Shown here: one piece after another, positions 38,806-56,400 of the stretch | How the letters are laid out: each line of letters starts with the position of its first letter | Numbering within the stretch: position 1 is the stretch's first letter | Position numbers and translations under genes: made by a program | Virus record (IMG/VR): IMGVR_UViG_3300028822_000274 | Span: 39,714 to 103,713 of that record | Strand: one strand, 5' to 3' | Length of the DNA: 64,000 nt | Source of the DNA: a virus | The notes under the pieces: generated by a model | What the model saw: only the letters and a program-made list of their open reading frames with translations | Told to the model about the DNA's origin: nothing | Databases searched by the model: none

Positions 38806-39837
38806 GTGACTCGCATTCTTCAATTGGCACCAGCTACGTGTGATGGCAAAGCTCCGAATGTAGACTTCATAGCCGAAGAAAAACTAGACGGACATCGTGC
38901 TTTGCTACACTTTGGGCGTGATTTAAAACGTGCATACCTAACGAGTAGACGTGTTTCGAAGAAGACGGGTCAATTTGCCGAGAACGGATTGTGCGTACCG
39001 CACATCACAGAACCCGCTCATTCGCATTCTTCTTTATCTCTCCTTGGATACACCGTCTTAGACGGTGAGATCCTTGTCCCAAACGCCACGTTCGAAGACG
39101 TACAATCCGTTCTCGGCTCTCTTCCGGAAAAAGCCATTGTATGGCAAGACAAAAATACGCGAGCAATCTATGTTGCGTATGACTGTTTGTTTTTTAACGG
39201 CTCTGATATACGTGATCGAGTATTGATAGACAGGAAATACATTATGGATGATGTCGTTAAACGATTGCACTCCTACATGTATGAAAGGTCGTATATTCGT
39301 ATTATCGAAAGCAATAGAGCCCATTCCATGGACGAAGTAAAGCCTTTCTTCGACAGGGTTGTAGACCGTGGCGGAGAAGGTCTTGTCATAAAAAACCCAT
39401 ATGCGAGATACGGTCGTGGTTGGTCGAAAATGAAATACGAGACCACGTATGATGTTGTCATAACAGGCTATGAATCTGGACAAGGCAAGTTCGAAAAACT
39501 CATAGGTGCGTTAAGGTTTGGCGCTTACGATGATGATGGGCATTTGGTTCCATTAGGTAAATGTTCTGGGATGCTGGATGGGAACGTGAGATGGGAGGGT
39601 GGCTCACCAAACAGGGTTGGCTCTTATCTGGTTTCTGAAGGCGATGAACAACCTATTGGTACGCGTGCCTGGTTTGCATCACGCAAATATGAGTTGCGCG
39701 GAATGGTAATAGAAGTGAAATGCAACGGTTTGACCAAACACGGAAAATTACGCCACCCACAATTTGTTCGTCTTAGGTCGGACAAAAACGGGGAGCAGTG
39801 TCAGCTCCCAATGAATCAAAAGAAGCGCGAGCTTTAG
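38806..39837 (+). CDS. ATP-dependent DNA ligase
   Basis: EEKLDGHR, LDGEI, YDCL, EGLVIK, W.KMK, LRHPQF.R.R.DK. Confidence 0.95.
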   Translation: MTRILQLAPATCDGKAPNVDFIAEEKLDGHRALLHFGRDLKRAYLTSRRVSKKTGQFAENGLCVPHITEPAHSHSSLSLLGYTVLDGEILVPNATFEDVQSVLGSLPEKAIVWQDKNTRAIYVAYDCLFFNGSDIRDRVLIDRKYIMDDVVKRLHSYMYERSYIRIIESNRAHSMDEVKPFFDRVVDRGGEGLVIKNPYARYGRGWSKMKYETTYDVVITGYESGQGKFEKLIGALRFGAYDDDGHLVPLGKCSGMLDGNVRWEGGSPNRVGSYLVSEGDEQPIGTRAWFASRKYELRGMVIEVKCNGLTKHGKLRHPQFVRLRSDKNGEQCQLPMNQKKREL

Positions 39838-39845
39838 GAGGTATT

Positions 39846-40988
39846 ATGGATGACCTTAGGATGGTCCCGATTGATCAATGTATTGCTCAGGATGAATTCA
39901 ACACTCGGCAACGAGGCCTCGGCGACCTGGCAGACCTGACAGAGTCGATCAAAGCAATCGGTGTGAAAGAGCCTTTGCTCGGCAAGGACAAAGAAAATAG
40001 CGCCGGTGAAGTCGAGATCTACGCTGGTTTCCGTCGTCTTGCTGCATCGAAAGATGCTGGCTTGGAAGAAGTTCCTGTCATGGTTTGCAAGCGTCGGTCT
40101 GCTTCCAGGAAGCAAATGCTCCTGGTGAACGTAACAGAGAACATCCAGCGCGAGGACCTGAACCCTGTCGACGAAGCTTACGCTCTCCAGCGTTTGCAGG
40201 TTGACCACAAAATGTCCATCGATGACATATGCGCTAGTCTTGGGGTCAAACGAACGAGGGTTCAGTCTCGCTTCAAGCTTTTGAAGCTCACTGAGATTGT
40301 TCGTGATGCAGTTCACGACGACAAGATTCCTGTTGCTGCTGCCCTGGAGATTGATAGGCTACCGGCAGATAAGCAGGCGAAGTTTGTCGACATTGCCGAA
40401 GAGCTTGGTGGCGGAAAACTCAGGGTCATGATCGACAAGGAGCTTGATAAACTCCAGCTCCAAATCGAAGGGACCGAGAAAAAGAAAAAGGACCCGCCTG
40501 ATACGTCGTCAGTCAACGAAGCTCTAAAAACAATCAAAAAGTCCTCTGCAGTTGTGGGGGAAGGGATCGGTTACGACAAGGATGCTATCGCTGCATTGAA
40601 GGCCGTGAAGTTCCGTGTTTTGGATCCTGATGACGTTGTTGTCGTAGCGAAGTTCTTCGACGATACAGCAGACCTCGTGCCTGATGAAGTGGCGATGAAC
40701 GACAAGGCACAAGAGGAGATCATCTCTGTGGTCGAGTCTTGCGGTTCTTCGATGCGGAAGATTTTCGACGTTGAAAGCCCGACGTTCAGGACATCTTTGA
40801 AGCGTGCTATTGCTGAAAGGGCTCAAGAAATCGCGCAAGAAAAGGCAGCCGAGTCGGGCAAAAGGCCAAAGGTCACATACGCCATTGCAAGGGAAGCCAT
40901 CGACGAGTTCTTCACCAGTGATGGTCTTGAAGAACAAGATGGCCCCGAGATCGACGCTGGCGAAGACACGGAAGAGAATGAGGACTGA
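39846..40988 (+). CDS. ParB/Spo0J-family protein
   Basis: L.ESIK..GV.EPL, AGFRRL.A, ENIQREDLNPVDEA, HTH region. Confidence 0.85.
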   Translation: MDDLRMVPIDQCIAQDEFNTRQRGLGDLADLTESIKAIGVKEPLLGKDKENSAGEVEIYAGFRRLAASKDAGLEEVPVMVCKRRSASRKQMLLVNVTENIQREDLNPVDEAYALQRLQVDHKMSIDDICASLGVKRTRVQSRFKLLKLTEIVRDAVHDDKIPVAAALEIDRLPADKQAKFVDIAEELGGGKLRVMIDKELDKLQLQIEGTEKKKKDPPDTSSVNEALKTIKKSSAVVGEGIGYDKDAIAALKAVKFRVLDPDDVVVVAKFFDDTADLVPDEVAMNDKAQEEIISVVESCGSSMRKIFDVESPTFRTSLKRAIAERAQEIAQEKAAESGKRPKVTYAIAREAIDEFFTSDGLEEQDGPEIDAGEDTEENED

Positions 40989-43533: not shown

Positions 43534-43836
43534 ATGTCGCTTACCTACAAAGAGGAACTGATTGAGACAAATTCTGGCATAGAACTTAAAGTCGCTTCTA
43601 GGACTGAAGCGGCAAAAGCTGCCGGAGCGATTGTCAAAAATTTCAGTGAAGGTCGCAAAGTCACACTGATTGCCATGGGTGCAGGAGCAGTCAACCAGGC
43701 AGTGAAAGCGATCTGTATTGCCAGGGGTATGGCAGCTCCTCACGGGCACAACCTTGCGACCATACCTGCTTTTGTCGACGAGATGGTCGACGGAGTAAGC
43801 AAGACAGCCATACGGTTTATCATTTTCAATAGATAG
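43534..43836 (+). CDS. spoVS: SpoVS (Alba-like nucleic-acid-binding) protein
   Basis: LKVAS...AGAI, GAGAVNQAVKAI.IARG..AP.G..L..IPAF, TAI. Confidence 0.9.
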   Translation: MSLTYKEELIETNSGIELKVASRTEAAKAAGAIVKNFSEGRKVTLIAMGAGAVNQAVKAICIARGMAAPHGHNLATIPAFVDEMVDGVSKTAIRFIIFNR

Positions 43837-43847
43837 TAAGGTGAACC

Positions 43848-44258
43848 ATGCATACCATCGGTGTTTCAGTTGAGTTTGACTCAGCTCACAGGTTATTTCC
43901 GTATGAAGGCAAATGCTCAAACATTCATGGACATAGATATAAATTAGAAGTGGCATTCGTAGGAGACACCTCTTCTAATGCAATGGTTATTGATTTTGGT
44001 GTCGTGAAAGATGGCCTTAAAAGAATAATTGAAGAAAAATTGGACCACAAGCTGATCCTCAGTATTGCAGATCCAATAAAAGATGCGCTAGCAACATACG
44101 ATGTCAGCATGTTGTTGTTGCCGGATAGTCCAACAGCAGAGTCTTTGGTATCTTACATCCATCTATTACTCAGTAAAGAATTCCTGAGTTATTGGCCGGA
44201 GATAAAAATATCATACATTAGATTGTATGAAACTCCGACATGCTACGCTGAGATTTGA
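43848..44258 (+). CDS. queD: 6-carboxytetrahydropterin synthase
   Basis: FDSAHRL...GKC.NIHGH.Y, DF, LDH, PTAE, YET. Confidence 0.95.
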   Translation: MHTIGVSVEFDSAHRLFPYEGKCSNIHGHRYKLEVAFVGDTSSNAMVIDFGVVKDGLKRIIEEKLDHKLILSIADPIKDALATYDVSMLLLPDSPTAESLVSYIHLLLSKEFLSYWPEIKISYIRLYETPTCYAEI

Positions 44259-44953
44259 ATATGTTCACGGTGAATGAAATATTTGCTTCAATTCAGGGTG
44301 AAGGACCGCGCATAGGCATTCCTGCTGTATTCATTCGTTTCTCAGGTTGCAATCTCAGTTGTGATTTTTGCGATACGGAGCATGAACAAAAAGAAGATCA
44401 CGATGTTGATTCCATAGTTGCGACTGCTAAACAGCTGGCAGGGTCTATGAGAGGATTGGATTGTGTTCTAACTGGGGGAGAGCCTCTTCTCCAGGTTACG
44501 GGAGCACTGTGCTCAAAGCTAAATGATGCTGGTTTCACTGTTACTTTAGAGACAAATGCTTCTGAAGAACTGACAAAAGATACTGAATCTTTGTATAGAG
44601 TTAATAATGTTATTTACAATTGTGACTATGTTGTTTCATCCCCAAAGAACTGTGATTACAGCAATTGGATATTGAGAAACTCCGATTGTCTAAAATTGAT
44701 TTTTCCGATGCTTTTTTACTCTAACGAAGGCGTATTATCTGATATGGTTTCACATATAAACATCAAAACTTTAGATTCAAACAGATTAGTACTACAACCA
44801 ATGACTGTTTTAAACGAAGACTGTTTGCTGGAAAAAGATCTGTATGAAACGATTTGCAAGTACGCTTGTGAGTTTGCGTCTGTTAGAAATGAGAATTTCA
44901 GAGAAAACTGGCGCGTAATACCACAGGCCCATGTATTCATGGGCCTAAGATGA
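44255..44953 (+). CDS. queE: 7-carboxy-7-deazaguanine synthase (radical SAM)
   Basis: EIF.SIQGEG..IG.PAVFIRF.GCNL.C.FCDT, TGGEP, ETN, LQP, Q.H; alternative ATG 44261. Confidence 0.95.
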   Translation: MNMFTVNEIFASIQGEGPRIGIPAVFIRFSGCNLSCDFCDTEHEQKEDHDVDSIVATAKQLAGSMRGLDCVLTGGEPLLQVTGALCSKLNDAGFTVTLETNASEELTKDTESLYRVNNVIYNCDYVVSSPKNCDYSNWILRNSDCLKLIFPMLFYSNEGVLSDMVSHINIKTLDSNRLVLQPMTVLNEDCLLEKDLYETICKYACEFASVRNENFRENWRVIPQAHVFMGLR

Positions 44954-45312
44954 AGGAGTCAAAAATGACAGAGTATCGCGAAGGAAACGAAGGCGTCGCC
45001 CAGCTCAGAAGCAAGAAAGAAGACCAGCCGGAAGGTGAGCAGGCTGAGAATGAAGGCAACACGCAGGAGATGCACGAAACCGCTGTCCTGTTGGTTCTGA
45101 CCTCTGATGGGAGGCTCGAAGCAGCTACCCAATTGCCCAGCATCCCGATGCGTAGGCAGGCGACTCTGAGGGACGTCAGGGATATTTGTCATGCCATGTA
45201 CAGTGATATTCAGGTTACGCTGGTAGGGAAAGCTTCTGCACATGAGTCTTCTGCGGCAATCCAGAGGACCTTGGCTCAAAGCCAGATCAAAAACATGCAA
45301 AAAAAGATCTAG
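44950..45312 (+). CDS. Hypothetical protein inside deazaguanine operon
   Basis: ATGA-coupled to queE (alternative start about 44965 after AGGAG). Confidence 0.65.
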   Translation: MKESKMTEYREGNEGVAQLRSKKEDQPEGEQAENEGNTQEMHETAVLLVLTSDGRLEAATQLPSIPMRRQATLRDVRDICHAMYSDIQVTLVGKASAHESSAAIQRTLAQSQIKNMQKKI

Positions 45313-45320
45313 AGGTAGTT

Positions 45321-45890
45321 ATGTTGTGTGAATCTGAGGTGGTTTCGTTTGGAGAAATGAAGGCTGCTGTGAGAACAATACTGAAAGGCATAGGCGAGGA
45401 CGATACGAGAGAAGGGTTGCTTGACACCCCATCGCGCGTTGCCAGGATGTACTTCGAGCTGACAAAGGGACTCAGAACGGAGCCACCTCAGATTACGGCT
45501 TTTTCCAGCGATTCAGTTGACCAGTTGGTTACTTTACTTGATGTCGATTATTCATCTCTTTGCGAACATCATCTCGTTCCTTTCTATGGTAAAGCACACA
45601 TAGGCTATCTCCCAGGAGACAAGCTCATGGGCCTCTCAAAGTTTGCACGTGTTTTGGATTGGTTTGCAGCCAGGCCTCAAATTCAAGAAAGGCTCACATC
45701 TGAAGTTGCTGACTACATAATGGAGAACCTTGAACCCGTTGGTGTTATCATTTTGATAGAAGGTACTCATACATGTATGTCGATTCGCGGCGTGAAAAAA
45801 CCAAATCATGTCACAGTGACGAGTGCAATTAGAGGTGATGTTCCAAGAGATGAGTTCTTCGACATACTAAACTCGAACAGGGATAGGTAA
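45321..45890 (+). CDS. folE: GTP cyclohydrolase I
   Basis: REGL.DTP.RVA, SLCEHHL.PF.G, GLSK.AR, QERLT, H.CM..RG. Confidence 0.97.
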   Translation: MLCESEVVSFGEMKAAVRTILKGIGEDDTREGLLDTPSRVARMYFELTKGLRTEPPQITAFSSDSVDQLVTLLDVDYSSLCEHHLVPFYGKAHIGYLPGDKLMGLSKFARVLDWFAARPQIQERLTSEVADYIMENLEPVGVIILIEGTHTCMSIRGVKKPNHVTVTSAIRGDVPRDEFFDILNSNRDR

Positions 45891-46270
45891 TGAGCAAGCT
45901 CAGAATTTGTTTTGATATAGATGGAGTTATTGCTACTGGAACAATAGATGGTGTCTATTCAGATGCTGCTGGCTGGAATTTCAATAAGTGTGACCCGATA
46001 CCGGAAACAGTAGATTTGATAAAAAGGCTCAAAGATCATGGGTGCGAGATCTTTTTGAACACTGCGAGGTTTGATGAAGATAGGGGTGTGACAGAAGAAT
46101 GGCTAAAAAAGCATGCGATCCCTTATGATCGGTTGTTAATGGGTAAACCTCATGCTGATCTCTACATAGATGACAAGAATTACCCCCAACCGTTTTGCCC
46201 TACAGATGCAGCACATTTCGGTGCTATTATAGAGGAGGCGATGTCACATGCCGGTAGGAGATTCGACTAG
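45890..46270 (+). CDS. Capless HAD phosphatase (capsule-biosynthesis phosphatase-like)
   Basis: FDIDG, TAR, T.EWL.KH.IPYD.L.MGKP..D.YIDDK. Confidence 0.85.
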   Translation: MSKLRICFDIDGVIATGTIDGVYSDAAGWNFNKCDPIPETVDLIKRLKDHGCEIFLNTARFDEDRGVTEEWLKKHAIPYDRLLMGKPHADLYIDDKNYPQPFCPTDAAHFGAIIEEAMSHAGRRFD

Positions 46271-46979
46271 ATACCATGTTGTTTTGAACAGTGGTGGCCC
46301 GGATTCTCTGATAACTTATTTTGCTCTTTGCAGGGCTTTTCCAGGTGACATCGTTGCTTCTGTTTATTTTGACCTGGGTCACAGGTACGCTCTTGAAGAG
46401 AAGCTGGCCGCAGCAATGACAGTACCTGATACACTCATGCTTGAGCCACTTCGTGGCCTTGGCGAGTGGGAGGAAGAGGATGCACATATCCACCTCAGGA
46501 ATGTATTTCTCATTCTTGCTGCCACTAAGCTGTTCAATGAGAACACGACTATCTATCTGTCTGTCCAGAAGGATGAGATGGATATTCCTGATAGGAAGCC
46601 CTTGACTCTAGCTTCAATAAATAGCCTTCTCACTGTTTTGGGGATTGATGCTTCAGTTAAGTCTCTGTGGAACCACAAAGACAAGACAGACATGGTCAAG
46701 CAATATGTAGAAATGGGTGGGTGCAAGAAGAAGCTGTACTCTACTTGGTCCTGCTATAATCCAACTCGGATGTATAGCAACCGCAGGGTAGTTCATTGCG
46801 GTGATTGCCCGGCATGCATACGAAGACACATTGCTTTTGTTCTTGGCTCTGGCGAAGACAGAACTTTGTACAAAAATGATCCCGAAAAGAGCGATACTGC
46901 CGAAAAATATGAATACCGAGCAAAATGTGGTGTTTATAGTGAAGACAGGTGTAAAAGGATTTTGTCGGTGATCAAATGA
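46248..46979 (+). CDS. queC: 7-cyano-7-deazaguanine (preQ0) synthase
   Basis: SGGPDS PP-loop, RN..L, TWSCY, CG.C.AC.RR; no glutamine amidotransferase domain. Confidence 0.9.
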   Translation: MPVGDSTRYHVVLNSGGPDSLITYFALCRAFPGDIVASVYFDLGHRYALEEKLAAAMTVPDTLMLEPLRGLGEWEEEDAHIHLRNVFLILAATKLFNENTTIYLSVQKDEMDIPDRKPLTLASINSLLTVLGIDASVKSLWNHKDKTDMVKQYVEMGGCKKKLYSTWSCYNPTRMYSNRRVVHCGDCPACIRRHIAFVLGSGEDRTLYKNDPEKSDTAEKYEYRAKCGVYSEDRCKRILSVIK

Positions 46980-48028
46980 ACAAAATAAAGGCATTGAAAG
47001 TAGAGTGGTTGTTTACGAGAAAGTGCAACCTGAGCTGCAGTTATTGTAAAATACGAAGGAGTCCTCTGTATGCTGACGAGCTTGACACAGAAGAAGCCAA
47101 AGATGCTGTCAGCTTTATAGGATATAACTGGCCTGGTGCACCGATAGTGTTTTTTGGTGGGGAACCTACTGTACGCAATGACCTGCCTGATGTCATAAAG
47201 CACGCTGTCGAATCCAAGGTGAAGCCGATTGTTATTTCAAATTCTCTTCGTGTTTTAGAGGATGAGGAATATCGCATTCGTCTTGTTGAGTCAGGATTGA
47301 AGAATTGGTCAATCTCATATGATGGACCCGATAAGATGATCAAAGATACGGCTGTACGGAAGAAGTCATCTGCTGGATTGCGTGCCATACGAATGTTCCG
47401 AGATCAATATGGTTTTGACGATCTTGTTGCTTGCATCACTGTTAACAAATACAATATCGACTCGCTACCGAAGATAGTTGAGTTTCTATCAAAAGAAGGG
47501 ATCTGGTCCATTTGCACCCCTCTGCAGCTAGGTGGCCATGGTTATGACTATTCGAGTGGGCATGAGACAGATATGCCCTCTAAAGTTCAGGTCGAAAGAT
47601 CTTCGAGATTGCTGCGCAGAATGGCTAACAGCGGCAACTACTTGATGCACAACCGGAGTGTTTGGTTTGACGCTTGGCCTGATCACTTCATATCTCAGTC
47701 GTGGCATTGCCACGATAAAAGCATTTTGACACTCGATGCTGACGGGTTCTTGAGATATTGCGTAGATAAGCAACTGTCTTCCCCAGTGAGCCTTTTTGAT
47801 TTGATGTCAAACGAAGGGCGCGAGTCCTATCAGAATGTTCTCAAACAAGGTCCTCTGAATGGTTGTCGTGGTTGTTTCTGGGACCCAGCATTCGAGGCAA
47901 TTCTACGCGGACTGGACCCAGAAATGTCTGAGGATCAGGGGAGGTCTTCTTACCGTCATGAACTATCCGAAGAACAAATAGCACGGCTTCTTCCAGAAGC
48001 CAGAAAGATTTGGGACAATCATGGATAA
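46976..48028 (+). CDS. Radical SAM enzyme with Twitch/SPASM-like C-terminus
   Basis: CNLSCSYC, GGEP, SN, ISYDG; C-terminal C...DADG...YC...C.GC. Confidence 0.9.
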   Translation: MNKIKALKVEWLFTRKCNLSCSYCKIRRSPLYADELDTEEAKDAVSFIGYNWPGAPIVFFGGEPTVRNDLPDVIKHAVESKVKPIVISNSLRVLEDEEYRIRLVESGLKNWSISYDGPDKMIKDTAVRKKSSAGLRAIRMFRDQYGFDDLVACITVNKYNIDSLPKIVEFLSKEGIWSICTPLQLGGHGYDYSSGHETDMPSKVQVERSSRLLRRMANSGNYLMHNRSVWFDAWPDHFISQSWHCHDKSILTLDADGFLRYCVDKQLSSPVSLFDLMSNEGRESYQNVLKQGPLNGCRGCFWDPAFEAILRGLDPEMSEDQGRSSYRHELSEEQIARLLPEARKIWDNHG

Positions 48029-48812
48029 GATTTCAGTAGGCATACCGACGATAGGGCGTGATGAGACTTTGCCGTCTGTTTTGAATTCTATTTCTTTCCA
48101 GAAGGATTTCGTTTCAGAGGTAGTCATCCTCGACGAGTCTGTGAAGCCGATAACCGAGAATTTTGCAGTGCGTCAGGCAATGGACTTGCTCTCTATTCTC
48201 GGTGTGGATGTCATCTACGTCAGGGACAGGAATAAACGCGGGATAGGGAATGCGCGTTATCGTCTGTGTGAAATAGCAAAAAGCGAATTCATTCTCCAGG
48301 TAGATGATGATGTTGTCTTGGATCCAGACTGCATATCTGTATTGATGGACAACGGTGATGATTTTGTCTGGGCTGTGCCGACTTGTGTTTTGGTTCCAGG
48401 TCACTTGGTGACAGACGGATATAGTGTTGACGTAGTTGACAGATATGATCCTGAGGTCATGAAATGGACTGAAAAGTATCCGTGGTTCATCCCTTATTTC
48501 AGATACCAGCAGTCGTTTTCCTGCCGGATAGATTGTGCTGGGACACAGGCAATCCTCGTTGACCGAAAAGCTGTTTTAGGGCACGCGGGGAAAATGAGAA
48601 ATTTTGGTAGACTCCCAAGGGAGGACACATATTTGACAACCATCCTTGGTCCAGGAGTTTTCTGCTCGGACGCTGTTTGCTATCACTTCGAGCACCCTGA
48701 CCAAGCTGACAGAAGCAACTGGGGATCTTCGATGTTTTATCGGATCCATGAAGTTGTAAACAAATACCCAGAAATTTTCGCAGCTATTTTTGGTGAGAAA
48801 AATGCACCTTGA
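48021..48812 (+). CDS. GT2 (GT-A) glycosyltransferase
   Basis: ISVGIPT.GR, VVILD, GIGNAR, VDDD DxD motif, ED, H. Confidence 0.9.
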   Translation: MDKISVGIPTIGRDETLPSVLNSISFQKDFVSEVVILDESVKPITENFAVRQAMDLLSILGVDVIYVRDRNKRGIGNARYRLCEIAKSEFILQVDDDVVLDPDCISVLMDNGDDFVWAVPTCVLVPGHLVTDGYSVDVVDRYDPEVMKWTEKYPWFIPYFRYQQSFSCRIDCAGTQAILVDRKAVLGHAGKMRNFGRLPREDTYLTTILGPGVFCSDAVCYHFEHPDQADRSNWGSSMFYRIHEVVNKYPEIFAAIFGEKNAP

Positions 48813-49473
48813 AAAACCGATTTTTTGTTTTCACAGTGTTTGCTCTCTAGAGTCATTGCCTCCATCATCTTGCTGGCCTTCGGAGACGCATTTTGACATG
48901 TTTTCAAAGCATCTTCGTGTTGATGATGAGTGGTTTACGTCGTTCATTCAGAAAGCACAGGCTGTTTGGGGTGATTTCTCGATCACCTTTGATGACGGCT
49001 ACATGGACTGTGTGATTCCAGCGATTTTTGCTGCTTCAAAGGGCATCGATACTACGGTATTTGTTTCGTTTGACCACGTAGGAAGACAGGCACCGTTTTC
49101 GCCTTTACCTATGCTGAGGGACATTGACCTCTATCATCTCGCTGAGCATGGAGTTCGAATAGGGTCTCACGGTATGAAGCACAGGGACTGGAAGCTGTTG
49201 CCAGACAATGTCGTAAGGAAAGATATTTTCGATTCTTTCAACCAGTGTCAGACATTTGATTTCTTCAGCAAGTTGAAAACATCTTTCAGGATTGCTCCTC
49301 CACACGGGTCTTTTTACAACAATCACGTCGATATGTGTACCGAGATCGGTTTTGACAGGTTTTTAGGCGTGGATTGCCCATACACTGATGATTACGTCAG
49401 TAGTCGCGTGTTGGCTTGTGCCAGTGGTTATCGTGTAGGGGATGAGGAGTTTGTCTGGCCGTGGGGAGGTTGA
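48802..49473 (+). CDS. Polysaccharide deacetylase (NodB/CE4-like)
   Basis: ITFDDGY, IGSHG..H, PPHG motifs. Confidence 0.85.
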   Translation: MHLEKPIFCFHSVCSLESLPPSSCWPSETHFDMFSKHLRVDDEWFTSFIQKAQAVWGDFSITFDDGYMDCVIPAIFAASKGIDTTVFVSFDHVGRQAPFSPLPMLRDIDLYHLAEHGVRIGSHGMKHRDWKLLPDNVVRKDIFDSFNQCQTFDFFSKLKTSFRIAPPHGSFYNNHVDMCTEIGFDRFLGVDCPYTDDYVSSRVLACASGYRVGDEEFVWPWGG

Positions 49474-49474
49474 C

Positions 49475-50320
49475 ATGATTTTGGTTGGAATACCGACGAG
49501 AAACAGGCCGGAATATCTGGCGGCCTTGCTGTCTTCCCTGATGTTCCAGACCGAGCAGCGTTTTGATGTACTCATAGTTGATTCAGCTCAGGGATCAGAG
49601 AAGAGAGTGAAGGACTCTACGATAGCGTGCAGGTTCATTGAGGCATTGCTTGGTCTAGGCCATAGAGTTGATGTTGTAACTGACTTTGCTTTATGCGGGT
49701 TGTCAGAAGCAGCAGCTGTAAATCATATTTTGAGTGTGGCAGAATCAAAAAGGTACGATTTTGTCTACAAGGTAGATGACGACCACGTTCTAGAACCTCA
49801 TTGCCTGAGGACTCTTTCTTTATCATTGACATCGACTAATAAATATAATCCTTCATTGATAAGCGGTATGACTCCTTGGATGCACAGCATTGGACCAGGA
49901 ATGTCTTCTCCTTCTGACGATGCAAGGCATACACATGAGCTTGGACCAAACGTAACCTATCTTGAGTGCAAAGATACTGTCTTAAAAGTAGTCATAAATC
50001 ATTTCGATAGATTTGAAGAGCCAGAGATAAGGTCGACCGTTCTTGCATCCGCTGCAAACTTCATGATGAAACCAGATACAAGGATTCTTTGGTCTGATGT
50101 CAGTGGATCCTCTTTTTATTTGGACGCAATGTGGTTTTTGAGATTAAGGAATTTACTGAGTTACAGTTTGTTTTTTCATACTGGCGTTAATGCATGGCAT
50201 GTAGCCGCAGACACTGGCGGTGTCAGGACAGAAAAAGGCAACCACGAGAAAAACTCTGATATTGATTATTTCAATTTTGCTCTTCTATTTAATATGGCTC
50301 GTGGTTTTAAGGAGATATGA
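49475..50320 (+). CDS. GT2 (GT-A) glycosyltransferase
   Basis: LVGIPTRNR..YL..LL.SL..QT, LIVD, VDDD, WH....GG.R; GGAGG RBS. Confidence 0.88.
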   Translation: MILVGIPTRNRPEYLAALLSSLMFQTEQRFDVLIVDSAQGSEKRVKDSTIACRFIEALLGLGHRVDVVTDFALCGLSEAAAVNHILSVAESKRYDFVYKVDDDHVLEPHCLRTLSLSLTSTNKYNPSLISGMTPWMHSIGPGMSSPSDDARHTHELGPNVTYLECKDTVLKVVINHFDRFEEPEIRSTVLASAANFMMKPDTRILWSDVSGSSFYLDAMWFLRLRNLLSYSLFFHTGVNAWHVAADTGGVRTEKGNHEKNSDIDYFNFALLFNMARGFKEI

Positions 50321-51276
50321 TGAAGATCAATTTTTTGGCCTCTATACCTGATGAGGGTTGGGCTGTGCCATATTGTTCTGCTGTTATAGATGCATGTGAA
50401 CAATCCGGTGACTGTGAAATATACAGAACGGATGGGATGTCAGAAGCGGAAGTTTTCAGGCTGGTAATGTCAGCAAGGAAGTGTGATGTTTGGTACAGCG
50501 CAAATATACTGGACATCTGGATGAAGCCGCTTGTGATAAAATCAAACATAGAAGGATCAAAAATAGTCGTACACAATCACGGCGGAATGGAAACACATGA
50601 CATAGTATCCCTTGTCCTTGGAAACGAAGATACTCAGATGCTTCCTATAGCTGCTTCATCAAGTTTTGGTGTTCATGTTTTATTCAATACCGAGCACAAC
50701 AGGACTGCTTTTGAGGACTATTACGGCACCTGTATGGCGAATAGTCATGTCGTAGGTTTTCCTGTCAGAAGGCCTGCCAGGCAAGTCGACAAGATCAAAA
50801 GGATCCTTGTTCCAGGTAGATTTTGCGCTACAAAAAATACACATCTCGCCGCAGAGATACTTCTGCCATTTGCTGACTCTGTTGTTTTCTCGACCATGCA
50901 CACCAAGAAGTGTGATTACTGGAAAATGCTTGAGTCGCTTGGTTATGATGTTGTCACTGCAGTTGGGCAAGCTTTCGACAAATTGCTGTACGAGAGCCAG
51001 ATAGTGTTCACTGCCAGCATGTCTGATTCCTTTAATTCTTCTATTGCCGAGGCGGCCTCTTTCGGTGCCAGTGTTGTTGCTCCTGACTGGGGCCCTTTCC
51101 CAGAATACGTGAATGATGCTGGTCTTTATAATGCTTTCAGTGTCGATATGGCCAGAGGAAGGGTACGTCTTTTTTTGAGCATGGGTAAAGAGGCCCCAAA
51201 AAGTGATGTTTCGATGTTTTACAGAGACAAATTCATAGACAGAGTCAAAAAAGTATTGAGGAAGCTAGAGCCATGA
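50317..51276 (+). CDS. GT-B (GT4-like) glycosyltransferase
   Basis: HGG, GRF..TKN, S.SDSF...IAEA...GA.VVAPD.GPFPE. Confidence 0.75.
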   Translation: MMKINFLASIPDEGWAVPYCSAVIDACEQSGDCEIYRTDGMSEAEVFRLVMSARKCDVWYSANILDIWMKPLVIKSNIEGSKIVVHNHGGMETHDIVSLVLGNEDTQMLPIAASSSFGVHVLFNTEHNRTAFEDYYGTCMANSHVVGFPVRRPARQVDKIKRILVPGRFCATKNTHLAAEILLPFADSVVFSTMHTKKCDYWKMLESLGYDVVTAVGQAFDKLLYESQIVFTASMSDSFNSSIAEAASFGASVVAPDWGPFPEYVNDAGLYNAFSVDMARGRVRLFLSMGKEAPKSDVSMFYRDKFIDRVKKVLRKLEP

Positions 51277-52301
51277 AAATTGCATTTGTCGTTCCGTATC
51301 TGTGGGCTGATTTCACAAAAGAAAAAACACCGAACATCGTGAAGCACTACATCAGTCTGTCCAACGCCATGCTTGAAAGGGGACATGACGTCCACATGCT
51401 CATGCTCGGGAAGGATGGTGCTTACACGTCTGATGCTGGCCTGAAATGCAGGTTGATTTGCGCCGAAAACAGCATGTCATTCTCTCAGAAGGTGTCTGAT
51501 TGGTTGCTCCATAACAGAATGGATGTTGTGGAGGGCACTTCTGATCTTGCTCCTCTCCTGGTGCCTGAGGCAGTTTCTGCCGCACCTATTGTTGTGAGGG
51601 CTCATCCCCTCCAGGGTTACATTGTTGCCCATGGAATGTTCTTGAAAGCAGAAAGCCTGTCTCTTGGTAATTCATTGGTTGATATAGAAGCACGGAGCAA
51701 GCTCGAAGACGCTACGATCCGATATGCAGATGTGGTTTCTTGTCCATCGAAACAGGTTCTCGAGGTTGTGGCCGGTGTCAACAACAGAGCAGATATAGCA
51801 CCAACATCAATACCTAATTTTTCATATGATTTGCCAGAAGAGTTTGAAACGGTTTCTGTTCTTGTGTCCCCTTACATGGAAGACTCGTGGTTGGATAAGC
51901 TCAACATAAAACTCAAGATGCTTGGTTATAGAGTGAAACTTATTGAGCATGACATGTGCATGCTAGAAACGTTTGATAGAATAACTGAGTCGTTTGCAGT
52001 TTTAACAGCAGAGAAGTTTTCATTGACTCATAATTTTGAGTTGACATCAATGCATGCAAGACGGCCTGTAATATGTTTTGGCAGGAATGACCTCTCTGGA
52101 TCTCCTGTTTTTGACTTAGGTTCTTTTTGTGACGAGTCTCTCGGTAAATTAGAAGAGGTATTTGGCTTCATAAAATCTAATTTTGACGAAGTCGCACGAA
52201 AAGGTATTATATTTACTAATAAATATATAGAAAAAGAAGCGGCTAAGATTCATGAAAAGATTTATGAAAAAGCAGTCGCAGTAAGATCAGGAAAAATTTG
52301 A
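51273..52301 (+). CDS. GT-B (GT4-like) glycosyltransferase, divergent C-terminal half
   Basis: MKIAFV.P..., L..RGHDVH.L, AD.V.CPS N-terminal domain motifs. Confidence 0.65.
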   Translation: MKIAFVVPYLWADFTKEKTPNIVKHYISLSNAMLERGHDVHMLMLGKDGAYTSDAGLKCRLICAENSMSFSQKVSDWLLHNRMDVVEGTSDLAPLLVPEAVSAAPIVVRAHPLQGYIVAHGMFLKAESLSLGNSLVDIEARSKLEDATIRYADVVSCPSKQVLEVVAGVNNRADIAPTSIPNFSYDLPEEFETVSVLVSPYMEDSWLDKLNIKLKMLGYRVKLIEHDMCMLETFDRITESFAVLTAEKFSLTHNFELTSMHARRPVICFGRNDLSGSPVFDLGSFCDESLGKLEEVFGFIKSNFDEVARKGIIFTNKYIEKEAAKIHEKIYEKAVAVRSGKI

Positions 52302-52308
52302 GGTAGTC

Positions 52309-53916
52309 ATGTCAGAAGAAACAGCAATAGAAAAAGTAGAAGGTATCACTGAGTCTGACATCGAAGAGACACTGGAGTATACTCCTGTTGGCAGGAATAT
52401 AGGCGCAGAAAAGTTTGTCGATAAATGGGATAGGCAGCTTCAAATAGACAGGCGTGTCTTCGGGACGAAGCTGTGTTTTGCTGGTGCTGAGGAACGAAAA
52501 CTTCGCGACGGCCTGCACAGGATTGGTGTTAGAAATATTCTTCTGTCATTTTACTACTTCAAGAAGTTCCTGAGGAAGCGTTCTATCCAGGAAATTGCGG
52601 ATGACATAGGTCGCTTTGACTACGTTATTCTCGATTCTGGTGGATTCACTTTCATGGAGGCTTTGAAGAATGGCGAAAAGCTGGACATGGACATTCGCCA
52701 GTATGCCGACCTGTACCATTCTGAAGTTGAGCGGTTTGGGCATGTCTTTACAGCTTGTGCTGAGCTTGACGTTCACGATGCCTTTTCCCAGAAAGAGATG
52801 GAGAACATCAGAGACCACCTGACAGACAAGGGTGTGTCGATGCTTCCTGTTCTTCATGGGGAGCAGTTAGATTATTACCGTGATCTTGGGTGGTTTAAAA
52901 AATACCCTTATATGGCGATTGGTTCGGCCCTGATAGGAAGGAACAAGCCAAGTCCTATTCTGCGTGACTACTTTACAGAGGCAAGAAAGACGGGAACGTT
53001 GTTGCACGGGTTTGGGGTAACCACTGTTGATGCACTACGGAAAATGCCATGGTACAGCGTTGACAGCACGACTTGGATGGGTGGTACGCGGTACGGAAAT
53101 ACGATGGTGTTTCAGAATGGTCGCCTCAGGTATTACGATTACAAAAAGAAAGATGTCCGAAAACGGTTCAAGAAAAGATTTGAAGAGAGCGGTTTAATTT
53201 GGGGTGACATCGAAAGGGAGAAGCCGCTCGAAATAAACCTGATGAATGCTCTCGGCTGGAAACAATGGGCTGACTACGTCAAGTACAACGTTCAGAATGC
53301 CTATTGGCTTACACCTGAAGAAAAGGATGAGGCCCTTTCGTTGAAATCCAAGGTGTTCAACACAGAGGGCATTATCAACAGGTCTGCATCTCTTGCCAGG
53401 GCTGAAGCTCGACGTCTTACACAGGTGGAAGACGCGAAGTACGACGACCGTGCTCACGAGATGCTTCATTGTGATACCTGTGCGATGGCAGGAAGGTGTC
53501 CCAGGTTCAAGGAAGGTGAGCCATGCGGATATGACATCAACGTCCGTTTGGAGACGAATCTTGACTTGCAGAAAGCTCTTCAAAACATTCTAGAGGTTGA
53601 GTATGGAAGAGTCATGACAGGTGCTCTGTTTGAGAAGCTTGAGGGTGGTGTTTTAGACTCGAATGTATCGAATGAGATGAAAAATCTCCTCGGCATGATC
53701 GAACAAATGAGAAATATGTTTAGTCAACGACGGACAGAAGAACTGCAGATAACAGCAAAATCAGAAGGTGGCTCCGGCACAGTATCGAAAATGTTGGCTT
53801 CTGTTTTTGGGCCACGTGGCTCGAATGGCTCAGGTTCAGGATCGACTAAAACTCAACGAGCGTCAAATCAAGTCATAGATGTTTCACCGATTGATGATGT
53901 AGATGGTGATAATTAA
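52309..53916 (+). CDS. DpdA/TGT-like deazaguanine DNA transglycosylase with C-terminal Cys4 + helical domain
   Basis: LDSGGFT, ELD, PV.H, AIG, HGFG, PWYSVDSTTW TGT-fold motifs; CDTC....RC.......C; end of queDECfolE operon. Confidence 0.75.
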   Translation: MSEETAIEKVEGITESDIEETLEYTPVGRNIGAEKFVDKWDRQLQIDRRVFGTKLCFAGAEERKLRDGLHRIGVRNILLSFYYFKKFLRKRSIQEIADDIGRFDYVILDSGGFTFMEALKNGEKLDMDIRQYADLYHSEVERFGHVFTACAELDVHDAFSQKEMENIRDHLTDKGVSMLPVLHGEQLDYYRDLGWFKKYPYMAIGSALIGRNKPSPILRDYFTEARKTGTLLHGFGVTTVDALRKMPWYSVDSTTWMGGTRYGNTMVFQNGRLRYYDYKKKDVRKRFKKRFEESGLIWGDIEREKPLEINLMNALGWKQWADYVKYNVQNAYWLTPEEKDEALSLKSKVFNTEGIINRSASLARAEARRLTQVEDAKYDDRAHEMLHCDTCAMAGRCPRFKEGEPCGYDINVRLETNLDLQKALQNILEVEYGRVMTGALFEKLEGGVLDSNVSNEMKNLLGMIEQMRNMFSQRRTEELQITAKSEGGSGTVSKMLASVFGPRGSNGSGSGSTKTQRASNQVIDVSPIDDVDGDN

Positions 53917-55036: not shown

Positions 55037-55321
55037 ATGGGTAATTTAAAAAAATCAAACAAAAGCAAGCGAAGCAAACGGAAACCCTCTCAATTTGAGA
55101 GGAGAGCAAAGAGGGCTCACAAGACAGCCACGACATTATCTACTATTGAGAATATCCTGGCCGGAGCTTTGGGCGACAAACTAAATTTTAGTTTTGGCCA
55201 TTCGAGACAGATCAACAATTCTTACGGTGTTGATTGTGTTCCGGGGGGTTTTATTGCCCTGGGGTATGACCTCACAAAACTGACGCTTGCTGATGCGGAT
55301 AAGAAGAATGTCCTTATATAA
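55037..55321 (+). CDS. Basic hypothetical protein
   Basis: K/R-rich N-terminus; overlaps methylase start. Confidence 0.55.
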   Translation: MGNLKKSNKSKRSKRKPSQFERRAKRAHKTATTLSTIENILAGALGDKLNFSFGHSRQINNSYGVDCVPGGFIALGYDLTKLTLADADKKNVLI

Positions 55322-55898
55322 TATCGTTTACGCAGACCCTCCATGGTACTACAGGGATAAAGCTGCAGCTGGAGAGCGTGGTGCTGGGCACAAATACCAA
55401 ACGATGCGTGATGATGAGATAGCTAATTTGACTGTAGAATCCATCGTTGCAGATGACGCAGCTTTATTTTTGTGGACAACAAAGCCGAAAATAGATGTTG
55501 CGTTGTGGGTGCTTAGGAAGTGGGGGTTTATCTACAAAACGTTCGCTTTCGACTGGATAAAGCTATCGAAAGAAGGGCGGCCTAAGTTTGGCATGGGACA
55601 CTGGACAAGGGCGAACGCAGAGCATGTTCTTCTAGGCATACGCGGGAATCCAAAGAGAATATCTGGTGGTGTGAGTTCTGTTGTCATGACCACACCTGGA
55701 AAGCACTCTAAAAAACCAGATGAAGTAAGGGATTCAATCGTAACACTCATGGGTGACATCCCGAGGATAGAGTTGTTCGCCAGGAAGCGTGTCGATGGGT
55801 GGGATGCGCTTGGGTATGATGTCGGGACTGGAGACATTACAAAATCAATAAACGCTATGAGCAAGGAGAGAGACCGAAATGAGAATCGTTCGAGTTAA
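55308..55898 (+). CDS. MT-A70 family N6-adenine methyltransferase
   Basis: YADPPW, LFLW, WGF.YKT..F.W.K, GMGHWTR.N.E, HS.KP, IELFAR. Confidence 0.92.
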   Translation: MSLYNIVYADPPWYYRDKAAAGERGAGHKYQTMRDDEIANLTVESIVADDAALFLWTTKPKIDVALWVLRKWGFIYKTFAFDWIKLSKEGRPKFGMGHWTRANAEHVLLGIRGNPKRISGGVSSVVMTTPGKHSKKPDEVRDSIVTLMGDIPRIELFARKRVDGWDALGYDVGTGDITKSINAMSKERDRNENRSS

Positions 55899-56064
55899 GG
55901 CCGATCAGAGGGCCAACATGCCTTTAGGTTTTGATGGTGGTTTTTCAATCAGGTGCCCGGGGAAAGACGGTTATTTGATCAAAATGAATCCTGGCGAAGC
56001 TGCCTCTGCTGCAGTGTTTGTTTCTGACGAAGATCTCGAAAATGCAGAAGAGTCTGAAGAGTAG
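55879..56064 (+). CDS. Hypothetical protein
   Basis: AGGAG upstream; coupled. Confidence 0.55.
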   Translation: MRIVRVKADQRANMPLGFDGGFSIRCPGKDGYLIKMNPGEAASAAVFVSDEDLENAEESEE

Positions 56065-56091
56065 GTTTTGACGTAGATTTTAGGAGTAGTG

Positions 56092-56400
56092 ATGTCGAAA
56101 TGTAGGGACTGTGATGGGACAGGTGCTTTTTCTTATCCATGCAGGTATTGTGAAGGTTCTGGGAAGATAGAAAAAAGAGATATGGCAGTAGATTGTGGTT
56201 ATTGCTTTGGCTCTGGTATGTTTTACCCACAATTCAAACAAAAGAAAGGGACAAAAATAAAAACATTTAGCCTTCCTTTTGTTGTTTTAAAACTTGGAAA
56301 TGGGAAATCTATCTTTGCGTACAAATGCAAAGCTTGTCGTGGGACCGGAGAGCACAAATCAAATAATTCGCAGGGGAAAAGGAACAGAGATGCAAGCTAG
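56092..56400 (+). CDS. DnaJ-type CxxCxGxG zinc-finger protein
   Basis: Four CxxCxGxG repeats. Confidence 0.8.
   Translation: MSKCRDCDGTGAFSYPCRYCEGSGKIEKRDMAVDCGYCFGSGMFYPQFKQKKGTKIKTFSLPFVVLKLGNGKSIFAYKCKACRGTGEHKSNNSQGKRNRDAS

Follow-up and report, generated by a model that had tools for sequence, protein, structure and literature searches.

The window analysed here, a 64,000-nucleotide stretch of the viral record IMGVR_UViG_3300028822_000274, comes from an uncultured phage with a 104 kb genome whose completeness is estimated at 100%. Its positions 43848-53916 hold 13 genes on the + strand, packed so that no intergenic gap exceeds 8 nt (10 junctions are overlaps of 1-32 nt and two are gaps, of 8 and 7 nt), in the order queD-queE-ORF120-folE-HAD-queC-rSAM-GT2a-deacetylase-GT2b-GTBa-GTBb-DpdA-like. 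The ORF layout thus bears out the tight, co-directional packing and the gene order given in the initial annotation. The genes and two neighbours are:

39798..40988, + strand: ParB-like protein (Pfam ParB_N and HTH_ParB)
43534..43836, + strand: SpoVS-like protein, adjoining the operon upstream (Pfam SpoVS 1.6e-24)
43848..44258, + strand: queD, 6-carboxy-tetrahydropterin synthase, PTPS family (Pfam PF01242 2.3e-29)
44255..44953, + strand: queE-type radical SAM enzyme, CDG synthase family (Pfam Radical_SAM, Fer4_12)
44950..45312, + strand: ORF120, small conserved protein with an acidic, low-complexity N-terminus (no family match)
45321..45890, + strand: folE, GTP cyclohydrolase I (Pfam PF01227 1.9e-62)
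45890..46270, + strand: small HAD-superfamily phosphatase (Pfam Acid_phosphat_B 4e-06, at cut-off; NT5C 1.3e-3)
46248..46979, + strand: non-canonical QueC-family PP-loop ATP-dependent enzyme (Pfam QueC 4.7e-14, C-terminal half only)
46976..48028, + strand: second radical SAM enzyme, Twitch/SPASM-like, phage-specific family (Pfam Radical_SAM 1.1e-15)
48021..48812, + strand: GT2a, family-2 (GT-A) glycosyltransferase, conserved core (Pfam PF00535 7.9e-12, above cut-off)
48790..49473, + strand: CE4/NodB-type polysaccharide deacetylase, cytoplasmic, accessory (Pfam PF01522, Polysacc_deac_1, 1.1e-08, above cut-off)
49442..50320, + strand: GT2b, second family-2 glycosyltransferase (Pfam PF00535 6.1e-07, above cut-off)
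50317..51276, + strand: GTBa, probable GT-B glycosyltransferase (Pfam Glycos_transf_1 9.7e-4, below gathering score; phrog_2170 1.7e-5)
51273..52301, + strand: GTBb, probable GT4-type GT-B glycosyltransferase (Pfam Glyco_transf_4 9.8e-5, below gathering score)
52309..53916, + strand: DpdA-like transglycosylase, 535 aa (phrog_887 'queuine tRNA-ribosyltransferase' 1.7e-52)

Nine of the operon genes are firmly assigned by Pfam, and the gene identities proposed at the outset were retained, both GT-B calls being weak. The genes around the operon serve replication and repair (ligase, ParB, RuvC, PolA, helicases). The SpoVS-like gene is found directly 5' of queD in relatives too, an association only. 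The ParB-like protein may act with DpdA as a DpdB-type partner: around classical dpdA genes, ParB_N is one of the families met most often (13/150 ORFs) and, in mycobacteriophages, ParB-like genes abut dpdA.

By family assignment, FolE, QueD and QueE are predicted to make 7-carboxy-7-deazaguanine (CDG) from GTP. FolE is 54-60% identical to its relatives, QueD has syntenic relatives at 27-41% identity, and the queE product, in which a CX3CX2C motif is read, finds QueE models as all its best NCBIfam matches (2.3e-24 to 1.3e-15, below equivalog cut-offs). The QueC homologue is less orthodox. It departs from several canonical signature positions when its motifs are compared with those of E. coli QueC, its sole PDB matches are QatC, and NCBIfam places QatC (2.5e-13) above QueC (1.5e-09), both far below cut-off; similar departures in the motifs are seen in the QueC of a control phage with an ordinary que-dpdA cluster. 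The likeness to RoyL, Cap9 and QatC lies in a PP-loop and zinc-Cys scaffold with altered substrate-pocket motifs, but the partner proteins of those systems are absent here, where a full de novo pathway and DpdA are present. RoyL-type homologues join CDG to amines. Two further small proteins accompany the precursor genes. The HAD phosphatase carries a DxD motif within FDIDGV and matches phrog_1238 (1.9e-21) as well as polynucleotide-kinase/phosphatase PHROGs; its gene lies beside folE, queC or dpdA even in the distant loci L019, L023, L026, L029, L054 and L077, and is fused to a GNAT domain in L023. ORF120 gave no match in Pfam, PHROG or NCBIfam and no usable Atlas match, and has homologues in the corresponding place in L007, L011 and L018 and, in L010, adjoining dpdA.

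The second radical SAM gene overlaps queC by 4 nt and always adjoins the QueC gene. Across 38 homologues its product has invariant C17/C21/C24, C245-x11-G-x4-C262 and C297-x2-C300; all close homologues (at least 39% identity) lie on phage-like contigs, and no match was found in cultured phages. The top structural match of its model (pLDDT 94.5) is BlsE (7vob, Z 23.4, 294 residues, rmsd 3.6), a lead of only about 2 Z units over the next group (SuiB, SkfB, viperins and PqqE, Z about 20). In blasticidin S synthesis, the glycosyltransferase BlsD is paired with the radical SAM decarboxylase BlsE, and a similar pair acting on a nucleobase-sugar conjugate is proposed here; the phage enzyme is only 16% identical to BlsE and has an invariant four-Cys auxiliary-cluster motif.

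Among the sugar genes, GT2a is the conserved core transferase: it is 47-51% identical to all close relatives and keeps DDD 95-97 and 49 other columns invariant in 24 homologues, in a family found in this phage group only, with no match in cultured phages. GT2b has a VDDD motif and 25-50% identity in relatives. The two GT-B proteins are probably glycosyltransferases, as judged from motifs and homologues. A C-terminal stretch of GTBa resembles a GT-B donor-binding motif (EAASFGASVVA...PEYV) and its homologues (28-30%) in L023, L027, L029 and L109, members of the distant clade, adjoin dpdA, its profile finding no match in the PDB; homologues of GTBb in L005 and L007 exceed Pfam cut-offs, and its family profile matches BshA and GlgA weakly (2.7e-3). 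The deacetylase has TFDDG and H-x3-H motifs and no hydrophobic segment. It is present in L011 (34%), adjoins dpdA in L010 (28%) and is missing from most relatives; like the GT-B pair, it counts as a variable accessory rather than a core component.

Sequence and structure model agree that the 535-aa protein is a TGT-fold, DpdA-like enzyme, although it has no Pfam match. A TGT barrel (about residues 30-350) is followed by an invariant Cys4 cluster (Cys 388/391/397/406) and a helical C-terminal region; the catalytic-type motifs are DSGGF at 108-113 and VDSTTW at 251-256, and an intein splits the latter (DS|TTW) in the L007 protein. The modelled core has pLDDT >85 and its top PDB matches are all TGT or ArcTGT. 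By tblastn it is 25-32% identical over the core to annotated phage DpdA/TGT genes, and among its viral matches are phage 'queuine tRNA-ribosyltransferases' and a protein of Vibrio phage nt-1. Distant full-length homologues occur without que genes, so members of the family may differ in substrate.

Because all ORFs of the window lie on the + strand, shared gene direction by itself carries little weight, and a promoter/terminator scan remained at chance level. What rises above chance is the conserved linkage. The nesting of the sugar genes between queC and dpdA, noted initially, is conserved in distant relatives: in all 14 related loci examined, glycosyltransferase genes are flanked by que genes and dpdA, with varying gene order and families, and the linked loci span at least three DpdA lineages in a quick tree. 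The succession queC-rSAM-GT2-GT2-dpdA is syntenic in L004, L006, L007, L011, L013, L016 and L018 (DpdA identity 42-57%); L011 also has the deacetylase and one GT-B in conserved order, L009 places its GT2s between folE and queC, L004 has an extra GT25, and L005 and L007 have GT4. A clade at 26-31% identity (L023, L025, L026, L027, L109) carries GT2, GT4 or GTBa-like genes together with GNAT, methyltransferase or nucleotidyltransferase genes, L078 reads rSAM-queC...GT1...dpdA, and L019 consists of HAD-GT4-DpdA with no que genes. The 133 ORFs around GT-linked dpdA loci include 17 GT2, 4 GT4, 2 GT1 and 2 PIG-L proteins, whereas no glycosyltransferase family is among the 25 commonest around 18 classical que-dpdA loci (150 ORFs). 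Since this control lists those 25 families, up to 2 matches per glycosyltransferase family could be hidden, and the comparison is of 17/133 with at most 2/150 GT2 (Fisher p <= 1.5e-4), between loci that share ancestry and are not independent events. The radical SAM and GT2a families are confined to the phage group and, to judge from the identical lengths of their longest contigs, share contigs with the DpdA family. The co-occurrence of glycosyltransferase and radical SAM genes with que-dpdA in related phages, a check proposed in the initial annotation, is found, and extends to distant ones.

The best reading, to which we give a probability of about 0.55, is that of one DNA-hypermodification operon yielding a 7-deazaguanine base with a variable, amino-sugar-containing glycan, a reading supported by comparative genomics rather than chemistry. 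The QueC-family enzyme would activate the CDG carboxylate with ATP to give preQ0, the amide ADG or a conjugate with another amine, and the DpdA-like enzyme would put the deazaguanine in place of guanine in the phage's DNA. GT2a would add a first sugar to the base from a host nucleotide-sugar, the Twitch radical SAM enzyme would remodel that sugar by BlsE-like chemistry or create an attachment handle, and GT2b, the two GT-B proteins and the NodB-type deacetylase would lengthen the glycan and uncover an amino group (GlcNAc to GlcN). Sugars may be attached, via the C7 side chain or N2, either once the base is in DNA or earlier, while it is free. The DNA would then probably contain a 7-deazaguanine carrying a short amino-sugar-containing glycan that would block restriction. 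Gene identities, nesting and linkage stand as initially interpreted, while three elements of that interpretation are putative. A preQ0 base is one, as the QueC homologue is non-canonical with QatC as best score; preQ0 also lacks an evident O- or N-handle at C7, which would call for a further, putative step and counts against the preferred reading. Tailoring of the base by the radical SAM enzyme is another, its nearest fold being that of an enzyme that works on the sugar part of a base-sugar conjugate, and glycosylation on DNA is the third.

With the phage 7-deazaguanine systems (FolE/QueD/QueE/QueC plus DpdA1-4; Hutinet 2019; Cui et al. 2023, PMC10516641) the operon shares the precursor genes, a TGT-fold DpdA-type enzyme ending the cluster, a place in the phage replication module and a presumed post-replicative base exchange. 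The eight known products require QueF, ArcS, Gat-QueC, DpdL, DpdM or DpdN. None of these is present here: as first noted for QueF, ArcS and Gat-QueC-type enzymes, Pfam, PHROG and NCBIfam report no ArcS, GATase, QueF or DpdL/M/N-type domain among the 13 ORFs, and QueF is absent from the whole genome. Unlike those systems, the operon encodes a further radical SAM enzyme, as many as four glycosyltransferases, a deacetylase and a HAD phosphatase. Its DpdA, which does not clearly belong to a named subfamily, exceeds theirs by about 200 residues and carries the Cys4 cluster and the helical tail. Precedents for parts of the scheme exist elsewhere. Huimycin and dapiramicin clusters combine preQ0/CDG core genes with a GT4-type enzyme that adds GlcNAc to the deazapurine N2; HuiG, which glycosylates a preQ0-derived base, is thus a direct chemical precedent for glycosylating the scaffold. 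Eukaryotic tRNA contains mannosyl- and galactosyl-queuosine, glycosylated 7-deazaguanines in a nucleic acid, and in Nod-factor synthesis the cytoplasmic GT2 NodC and CE4 deacetylase NodB make a de-N-acetylated GlcNAc glycan; these are analogies only, the acceptors being the cyclopentenediol of Q in tRNA and a free chito-oligosaccharide.

The huimycin and blasticidin precedents invite a reading in which the product is a glycosylated 7-deazapurine in free form (or its nucleotide), directed against host or competitors, with DpdA separate or acting on the unglycosylated base only. HuiG-type enzymes do act on free preQ0-derived bases and BlsE on a free base-sugar conjugate, the HAD phosphatase is conserved here and toyocamycin-type clusters have HAD enzymes too, and the methyltransferase and acyltransferase genes of the distant clade resemble natural-product clusters. 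We nevertheless consider it unlikely: characterised deazapurine metabolite clusters, of which huimycin and dapiramicin are actinomycete examples yielding free bases, lack DpdA/TGT as their defining rule, whereas here DpdA is the terminal operon gene of a phage and stays linked to a glycosyltransferase even without que genes (L019), and no transporter or regulator was recognised. Two systems on one transcript are a rather improbable arrangement. DpdA would then install dPreQ0, dADG or dCDG, and the glycosyltransferases, deacetylase and radical SAM enzyme would glycosylate, for example, virion proteins or a host envelope glycan. Phages do carry glycosyltransferases for glycosylating virions or host surfaces, and GT2, GT4 and CE4 are typical of polysaccharide enzymes, the best NCBIfam names here being exopolysaccharide and protein-glycan enzymes. 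All four glycosyltransferases are moreover acidic (pI 4.9-5.9), unlike the basic DNA glucosyltransferases, which counts against our preferred reading, though DpdA is likewise acidic and brines are the source of many relatives. Against two systems, the glycosyltransferases of each related locus examined stay inside the stretch from que to dpdA while orders and families differ, and none of their families is among the 25 commonest at classical dpdA loci; none of the 13 operon proteins has a membrane segment, no signal peptide, flippase, polymerase or initiating transferase was seen among them, no GT2 is encoded elsewhere in the complete genome, and the operon lies in the replication rather than the structural module.

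A QueC-like/TGT-like pair could also attach a deazaguanine to a protein (cf. Cap9/Cap10, QatC) or to host tRNA, with sugars decorating the conjugate. The QatC matches of the QueC homologue, the small conserved ORF120, the glycosyl-queuosine of tRNA and the protein deazaguanylation reported for QueC-family and TGT-family enzymes of type IV CBASS all fit. Yet the TGT domain has its nearest relatives among phage DpdA-type proteins, phage DpdA1 and DpdA2 put bases into DNA where tested, the control phage QueC deviates similarly, no CD-NTase, QatA, QatB or QatD partner is present, and the complete genome has no tRNA genes; this target is distinctly improbable. Glycosylation of another DNA base, such as a hydroxymethylated pyrimidine, by enzymes merely neighbouring deazaguanine genes would follow the only pattern of phage DNA glycosylation that has, to our knowledge, been characterised. 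T-even glucosyl-/arabinosyl-hydroxymethylcytosine and TET-plus-GT systems resemble the present one in their soluble phage glycosyltransferases, host nucleotide sugars, non-canonical DNA base (proposed here) and varying glycosyltransferase content between relatives. However, the groups they modify are hydroxymethyls on pyrimidines, produced by ThyA-like or TET enzymes, and the complete genome has no ThyA-like hydroxymethylase, C5-cytosine methylase or, in a search run without a positive control, TET/JBP oxygenase; Pfam reports no T4-type family for any of the glycosyltransferases, which are GT2 and GT4-like rather than T4 alpha-/beta-GT. We regard this reading as very improbable indeed.

On the preferred reading of a glycosylated 7-deazaguanine in DNA, the variation of accessory enzymes among relatives is what would be expected if the glycan diversifies under host-nuclease pressure. 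In agreement with the initial annotation, which knew of no described example, we found no published case of a sugar-bearing guanine analogue in DNA; the linkage that recurs in distant relatives predicts one.

The operon core belongs to the known kind of phage 7-deazaguanine DNA modification, and the layer added to it, a second radical SAM enzyme (rSAM), glycosyltransferases (GTs) and a deacetylase, has no described counterpart in the literature searched; the deazaguanine derivatives of a 2023 survey carry small C7 substituents only (PMC10516641). The source is a large tailed phage and the operon closes its module of replication and repair genes, as judged from the gene content of the window (baseplate, tail-fibre, DnaB-type helicase, family A DNA polymerase, second helicase and UvsX-like recombinase genes) and from the ATP-dependent ligase, ParB-like, PD-(D/E)XK nuclease, RuvC and SpoVS-like genes directly upstream of the operon. 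The complete record, IMGVR_UViG_3300028822_000274, has 103,713 bases and is estimated to be 100% complete, the window being its bases 39714-103713; every large ORF of the window lies on the + strand. The 13 ORFs of the operon are laid out exactly as the initial annotation described them, with 10 overlapping junctions (1-32 nt) and 2 gaps (8 and 7 nt), and megablast matched the operon DNA to no cultured phage.

Features of the operon and its surroundings
39798-40988, + strand: ParB-like protein (ParB_N and HTH_ParB), 3 kb upstream of the operon
43534-43836, + strand: SpoVS-like gene, directly 5' of queD in the window and in relatives
43848-53916, + strand: operon, queD-queE-ORF120-folE-HAD-queC-rSAM-GT2a-deacetylase-GT2b-GTBa-GTBb-DpdA-like
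46976-48028, + strand: rSAM, distinct from QueE
55287-57653, + strand: MT-A70 family (N6-adenine-type) methyltransferase, weak MazG-like pyrophosphohydrolase and thymidylate/dNMP kinase, just downstream of the operon

Firm family assignments were obtained with Pfam for QueD, a QueE-type radical SAM protein, FolE, a QueC-family protein, the second radical SAM enzyme, two GT2 proteins and a CE4/NodB deacetylase. PHROGs identify the HAD-like protein clearly and Pfam at its cut-off, ORF120 has no match in Pfam, PHROG, NCBIfam or Atlas, and a hydrophobic segment is present in none of the 13 proteins. As to the surrounding genes, ParB_N is among the commonest neighbours of dpdA in 18 classical que-dpdA loci with a short dpdA (13 of 150 ORFs), and in mycobacteriophages dpdA has ParB-like genes directly beside it; the ParB-like protein of the window is a possible DpdB-type partner of DpdA. 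The methyltransferase, MazG-like and dNMP kinase functions encoded downstream also concern nucleotides or DNA modification and may cooperate with the operon.

Related loci (L-numbers) were fetched from viral contigs and metagenomes with the DpdA alignment as query, which succeeded where a single-protein query of viral contigs found nothing. The metagenomes gave 454 hits. The SpoVS-like gene served as synteny anchor, RuvC being discarded at 15-23% identity. Relatives of the SpoVS-like gene are encoded on more than 500 viral-contig stretches, and many of these loci (L092-L171) also hold a full-length DpdA-like homologue, 20-25% identical, with no FolE in the record.

Gene content of related dpdA loci (percentages, DpdA identity)
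L004, L006, L007, L011, L013, L016 and L018 (close clade, 42-57%): queC-rSAM-GT2-GT2 ahead of dpdA; L004, L011 and L016 stem from hypersaline and sediment metagenomes
L011: same order as the window, deacetylase and a GT-B included
Variable accessories: GT25 in L004; GT4 in L005 and L007
L009 (36%): two GT2-type genes between folE and queC; queC-rSAM abuts dpdA
L019: HAD-GT4-like-dpdA only, without que genes
L023, L025, L026, L027 and L109 (26-31% clade): GT2, GT4 or GTBa-like gene in the folE-to-dpdA interval, plus GNAT, FemAB-like, methyltransferase or nucleotidyltransferase genes
L023:3987-9993 and its equivalents in L025 and L026: HAD-GNAT fusion, FemAB-like acyltransferase, SAM methyltransferase, GTBa-like, GT2, more canonical QueC; no second radical SAM
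L078: short DpdA, rSAM-queC (canonical QueC), a GT1

The initial annotation had asked whether the GT, deacetylase and rSAM block co-occurs with que-dpdA in related phages, and this linkage indeed recurs across related loci, with varying accessories. Within 7 kb of 14 GT-linked dpdA genes (133 ORFs), Pfam counts were 17 for GT2, 4 for GT4, 2 for GT1, 2 for PIG-L and 3 for GNAT. At the classical loci (150 ORFs around 18 short dpdA genes) the commonest families were QueC, ParB, FolE, QueE-type radical SAM, terminases and preQ0 transporters, and no GT family was among the top 25; GT2 is enriched at GT-linked versus classical dpdA loci (17 of 133 ORFs against at most 2 of 150; Fisher p 1.5e-6 to 1.5e-4). 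GT-linked loci occur in at least three DpdA lineages of a quick tree with an unresolved backbone: a 10-member clade that includes the window, the L023/L025/L026 group, and L027 and L078 on long branches. The tailoring set of L023, L025 and L026 points to a modification that is related but of different chemistry. PIG-L, a GlcNAc de-N-acetylase family unrelated to the CE4 enzyme of the window, matches two ORFs near GT-linked dpdA (loci of alignment A4), and its presence as a non-homologous enzyme in some relatives suggests that amino-sugar de-N-acetylation matters.

The last gene of the operon encodes a 535-aa protein with a TGT-type (beta/alpha)8 barrel (AlphaFold2 model, core pLDDT >85, poor in the C-terminal third). 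All of its top 50 PDB structural matches are TGTs of bacterial, eukaryotic or archaeal origin (E ~6e-6, prob 1.0), and its viral structural matches include many phage 'queuine tRNA-ribosyltransferases', annotated TGT/DpdA proteins and a protein of Vibrio phage nt-1. The DpdA2 of phage nt-1 was found by experiment to put preQ0 into DNA (PMC10516641), and the matched nt-1 protein may be that enzyme. The catalytic-type aspartate motifs ILDSGGFTF (106-114; DSGGF 108-113) and YSVDSTTW (249-256; VDSTTW 251-256) hardly vary among 31 aligned homologues, which also share four invariant cysteines in their C-terminal part; the Asp residues of the two motifs are putative counterparts of TGT Asp102 and Asp280, read from the motifs rather than from superposition. 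By sequence, the protein has no Pfam TGT match and no PDB match, even in profile searches; it matches phrog_887 at 1.7e-52, and annotated phage DpdA/TGT genes match it at 25-32% identity over residues ~50-273 (tblastn, 1e-12 to 1e-15). We have filed it as a DpdA-like TGT-fold enzyme outside any named subfamily. The family has 57 database relatives, many of them on 100-115 kb contigs. In L007:7934-10873 the homologue is a 979-aa ORF in which an intein of ~420 residues, with Ser at its start, ...AHN (His-Asn) at its end and Thr at +1, separates DS from TTW, an insertion point that fits a functionally critical motif; intein or LAGLIDADG domains also occur in three database homologues (P0037, P0046 and P0057). 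In the nearest cultured carriers of long DpdA-like genes, Bacteroides phage BS162P1 and Streptomyces phage GiJojo, no GT is annotated close by; both phages are too distant to be informative.

FolE, QueD and QueE, shown by family assignment, make 7-carboxy-7-deazaguanine (CDG) from GTP; the step that follows is harder to name because the QueC homologue is divergent. The canonical QueC signature has been defined experimentally, with Y35 and Y131 essential (PMC13082051). Aligned with E. coli QueC (alignment A6), the homologue retains the PP-loop (NSGGPDS for SGGxDS), the RN motif (HLRN for VPxRN), D133 and K165; it departs from YxQxHxxE (Y35 to L, Q37 to H, H39 to Y) and reads IPDR for YPDC (Y131 to I, C134 to R). 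Its zinc-type Cys motif, C-x15-CxxCxxC, has a longer zinc loop with QatC-like spacing instead of the canonical C(x)8CxxCxxC. It scores 37.7 bits against the QueC equivalog TIGR00364 (cut-off 150.3), QatC scoring higher, and QatC is both its best NCBIfam match and its only PDB match. We considered these deviations as a decisive sign of a new reaction and dropped the idea: the control QueC, from the ordinary phage que-dpdA locus L044, likewise lacks Y35 and Y131, and motif deviation is therefore not decisive. Among divergent QueC homologues, RoyL is known to couple CDG to amines, and Cap9 and QatC to couple it to protein N-termini. Of the preQ0 pathway put forward in the initial annotation, the QueC-family gene is present, and its product is better read as a 'CDG-derived base' than as preQ0. 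The genome encodes no QueF.

The initial annotation counted four GTs, of which the two GT2 proteins are firm (PF00535, 45.9 bits for GT2a and 30.0 bits for GT2b, gathering cut-off 23.3), with DxD-type motifs (DDD 95-97, invariant in GT2a; VDDD in GT2b), and the two GT-B assignments are no more than probable. Both GT-B proteins score below the Pfam gathering cut-offs: GTBb has homologues that pass them and a profile that weakly matches BshA and GlgA (2.7e-3), and GTBa is tentatively assigned from a weak Pfam match and a reading of the GT-B donor motif, its profile matching nothing in the PDB. The deacetylase scores 35.5 bits against PF01522 (cut-off 23.1) and contains the TFDDG and H-G-M-K-H motifs that hold the Asp-His-His metal and catalytic residues of CE4 enzymes. 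GT2a has no relatives in cultured phages; its family, like that of rSAM, is found in this phage group only, and the GT2a, rSAM and DpdA families share contigs, as judged by the identical size of the longest contig. The pI of the GTs was tried as a test for DNA binding and abandoned, DpdA being equally acidic.

The second radical SAM enzyme is modelled very confidently (pLDDT 94.5). Among 38 family members, down to 24% identity, C17/C21/C24 (CX3CX2C), C245-x11-G257-x4-C262 and C297-x2-C300 are invariant, and rSAM thus displays the Twitch/SPASM feature (CX3CX2C, an auxiliary CX9-15GX4C and further Cys), the Pfam SPASM model giving no match. Because there are only four auxiliary Cys, rSAM is predicted from its sequence to carry one auxiliary cluster, of the Twitch type. 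Its best structural neighbour is BlsE (Z 23.4 over 294 residues, rmsd 3.6, 16% identity, phmmer E 8e-4), a radical SAM decarboxylase acting on cytosylglucuronic acid, followed by SuiB, SkfB, viperins and PqqE (Z ~20-21), DesII (17) and BtrN (14). The model comparison gives the lead that rSAM, like BlsE, may have a base-linked sugar as its substrate; the modest Z margin of BlsE over the next group makes this no more than a lead. Close rSAM homologues (at least 39% identity) are all on phage-like contigs and beyond them there is just generic radical SAM similarity; none was found in cultured phages, and the Atlas search returned nothing but generic radical SAM clusters. In L005:6522-7667 the rSAM gene takes the form of two ORFs, of 258 and 113 aa, and L005 has no detected QueC homologue; decay, an error of sequencing and a variant pathway are candidate explanations.

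We propose that the QueC-family enzyme would adenylate CDG and convert it to preQ0, to its amide ADG or to another amide, and that the DpdA-like enzyme, by its predicted activity, would swap G in phage DNA for the deazaguanine base. GT2a would use a host nucleotide sugar to attach the first sugar, and rSAM, which is translationally coupled to queC in the window and next to it in L009 (queC-rSAM) and L078 (rSAM-queC), would either remodel this sugar or make the attachment handle. Lengthening of the glycan and exposure of an amine would fall to GT2b, both GT-B proteins and the NodB-type deacetylase. A precedent is HuiG, which N2-glycosylates a preQ0-derived base with GlcNAc. For the mechanism as a whole, a glycosylated 7-deazaguanine DNA base made by the operon, we estimate a probability of roughly 0.55. 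That guanine in the DNA of these phages is replaced by a 7-deazaguanine with an oligosaccharide including a free-amine sugar, made by a phage-only core of GT2 and Twitch rSAM and varied by lineage, is in our view an even bet.

The same genes may be read otherwise. The operon could yield a free glycosylated deazapurine metabolite, a reading that we consider unlikely; a DpdA-like gene shares the operon with folE, queD, queE and queC in the window and in relatives. Slightly less likely still, the GT and rSAM genes would glycosylate an unrelated glycan target. The GTs travel with the que genes and not with the transglycosylase fold alone, because the distant full-length DpdA-like homologues beside SpoVS-like genes are in phage records without FolE, four of five of which are also without GT2; the genome contains no GT2 outside the operon. 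That the target is a protein or a tRNA seems to us improbable. Neither the window nor the whole genome contains a tRNA or tmRNA according to ARAGORN, and the tRNA-like element that the initial annotation placed in the gap 41025-41214 is not a standard tRNA.

Finally, the GTs could glycosylate another DNA base, which we regard as very improbable: the genome encodes no known pyrimidine handle for DNA glycosylation, as no gene for a ThyA-like hydroxymethylase, a C5-cytosine methylase or, in a search run without positive control, a TET/JBP oxygenase was found in it. None of the four GTs matches the T4 alpha-GT or beta-GT families, only GT2, GT1 and GT4 being returned (hmmscan, Pfam-A, E <= 0.01). 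A glycosylated 7-deazaguanine remains our preferred reading, and a small share of the probability is given to none of the readings above.

To our knowledge, all known DNA sugars sit on hydroxymethyl-pyrimidine and all known 7-deazaguanines in DNA bear a one-carbon side chain only; a glycosylated deazaguanine would unite these two themes. If the proposal is true, the modified base would be the first glycosylated purine of any DNA, and DNA glycosylation would have originated a second time, independently of the hydroxymethyl-pyrimidine systems. New enzymology would come with it, namely a deazapurine-directed GT and a Twitch radical SAM enzyme restricted to phages, and the conserved core (QueC-like, rSAM, GT2a and DpdA) is small enough for direct work in E. 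coli. Such DNA would provide new substrates for the study of restriction, CRISPR and DNA-glycosylase defences, and its modification could account for the odd sequencing or cloning behaviour that the DNA of these phages may show.
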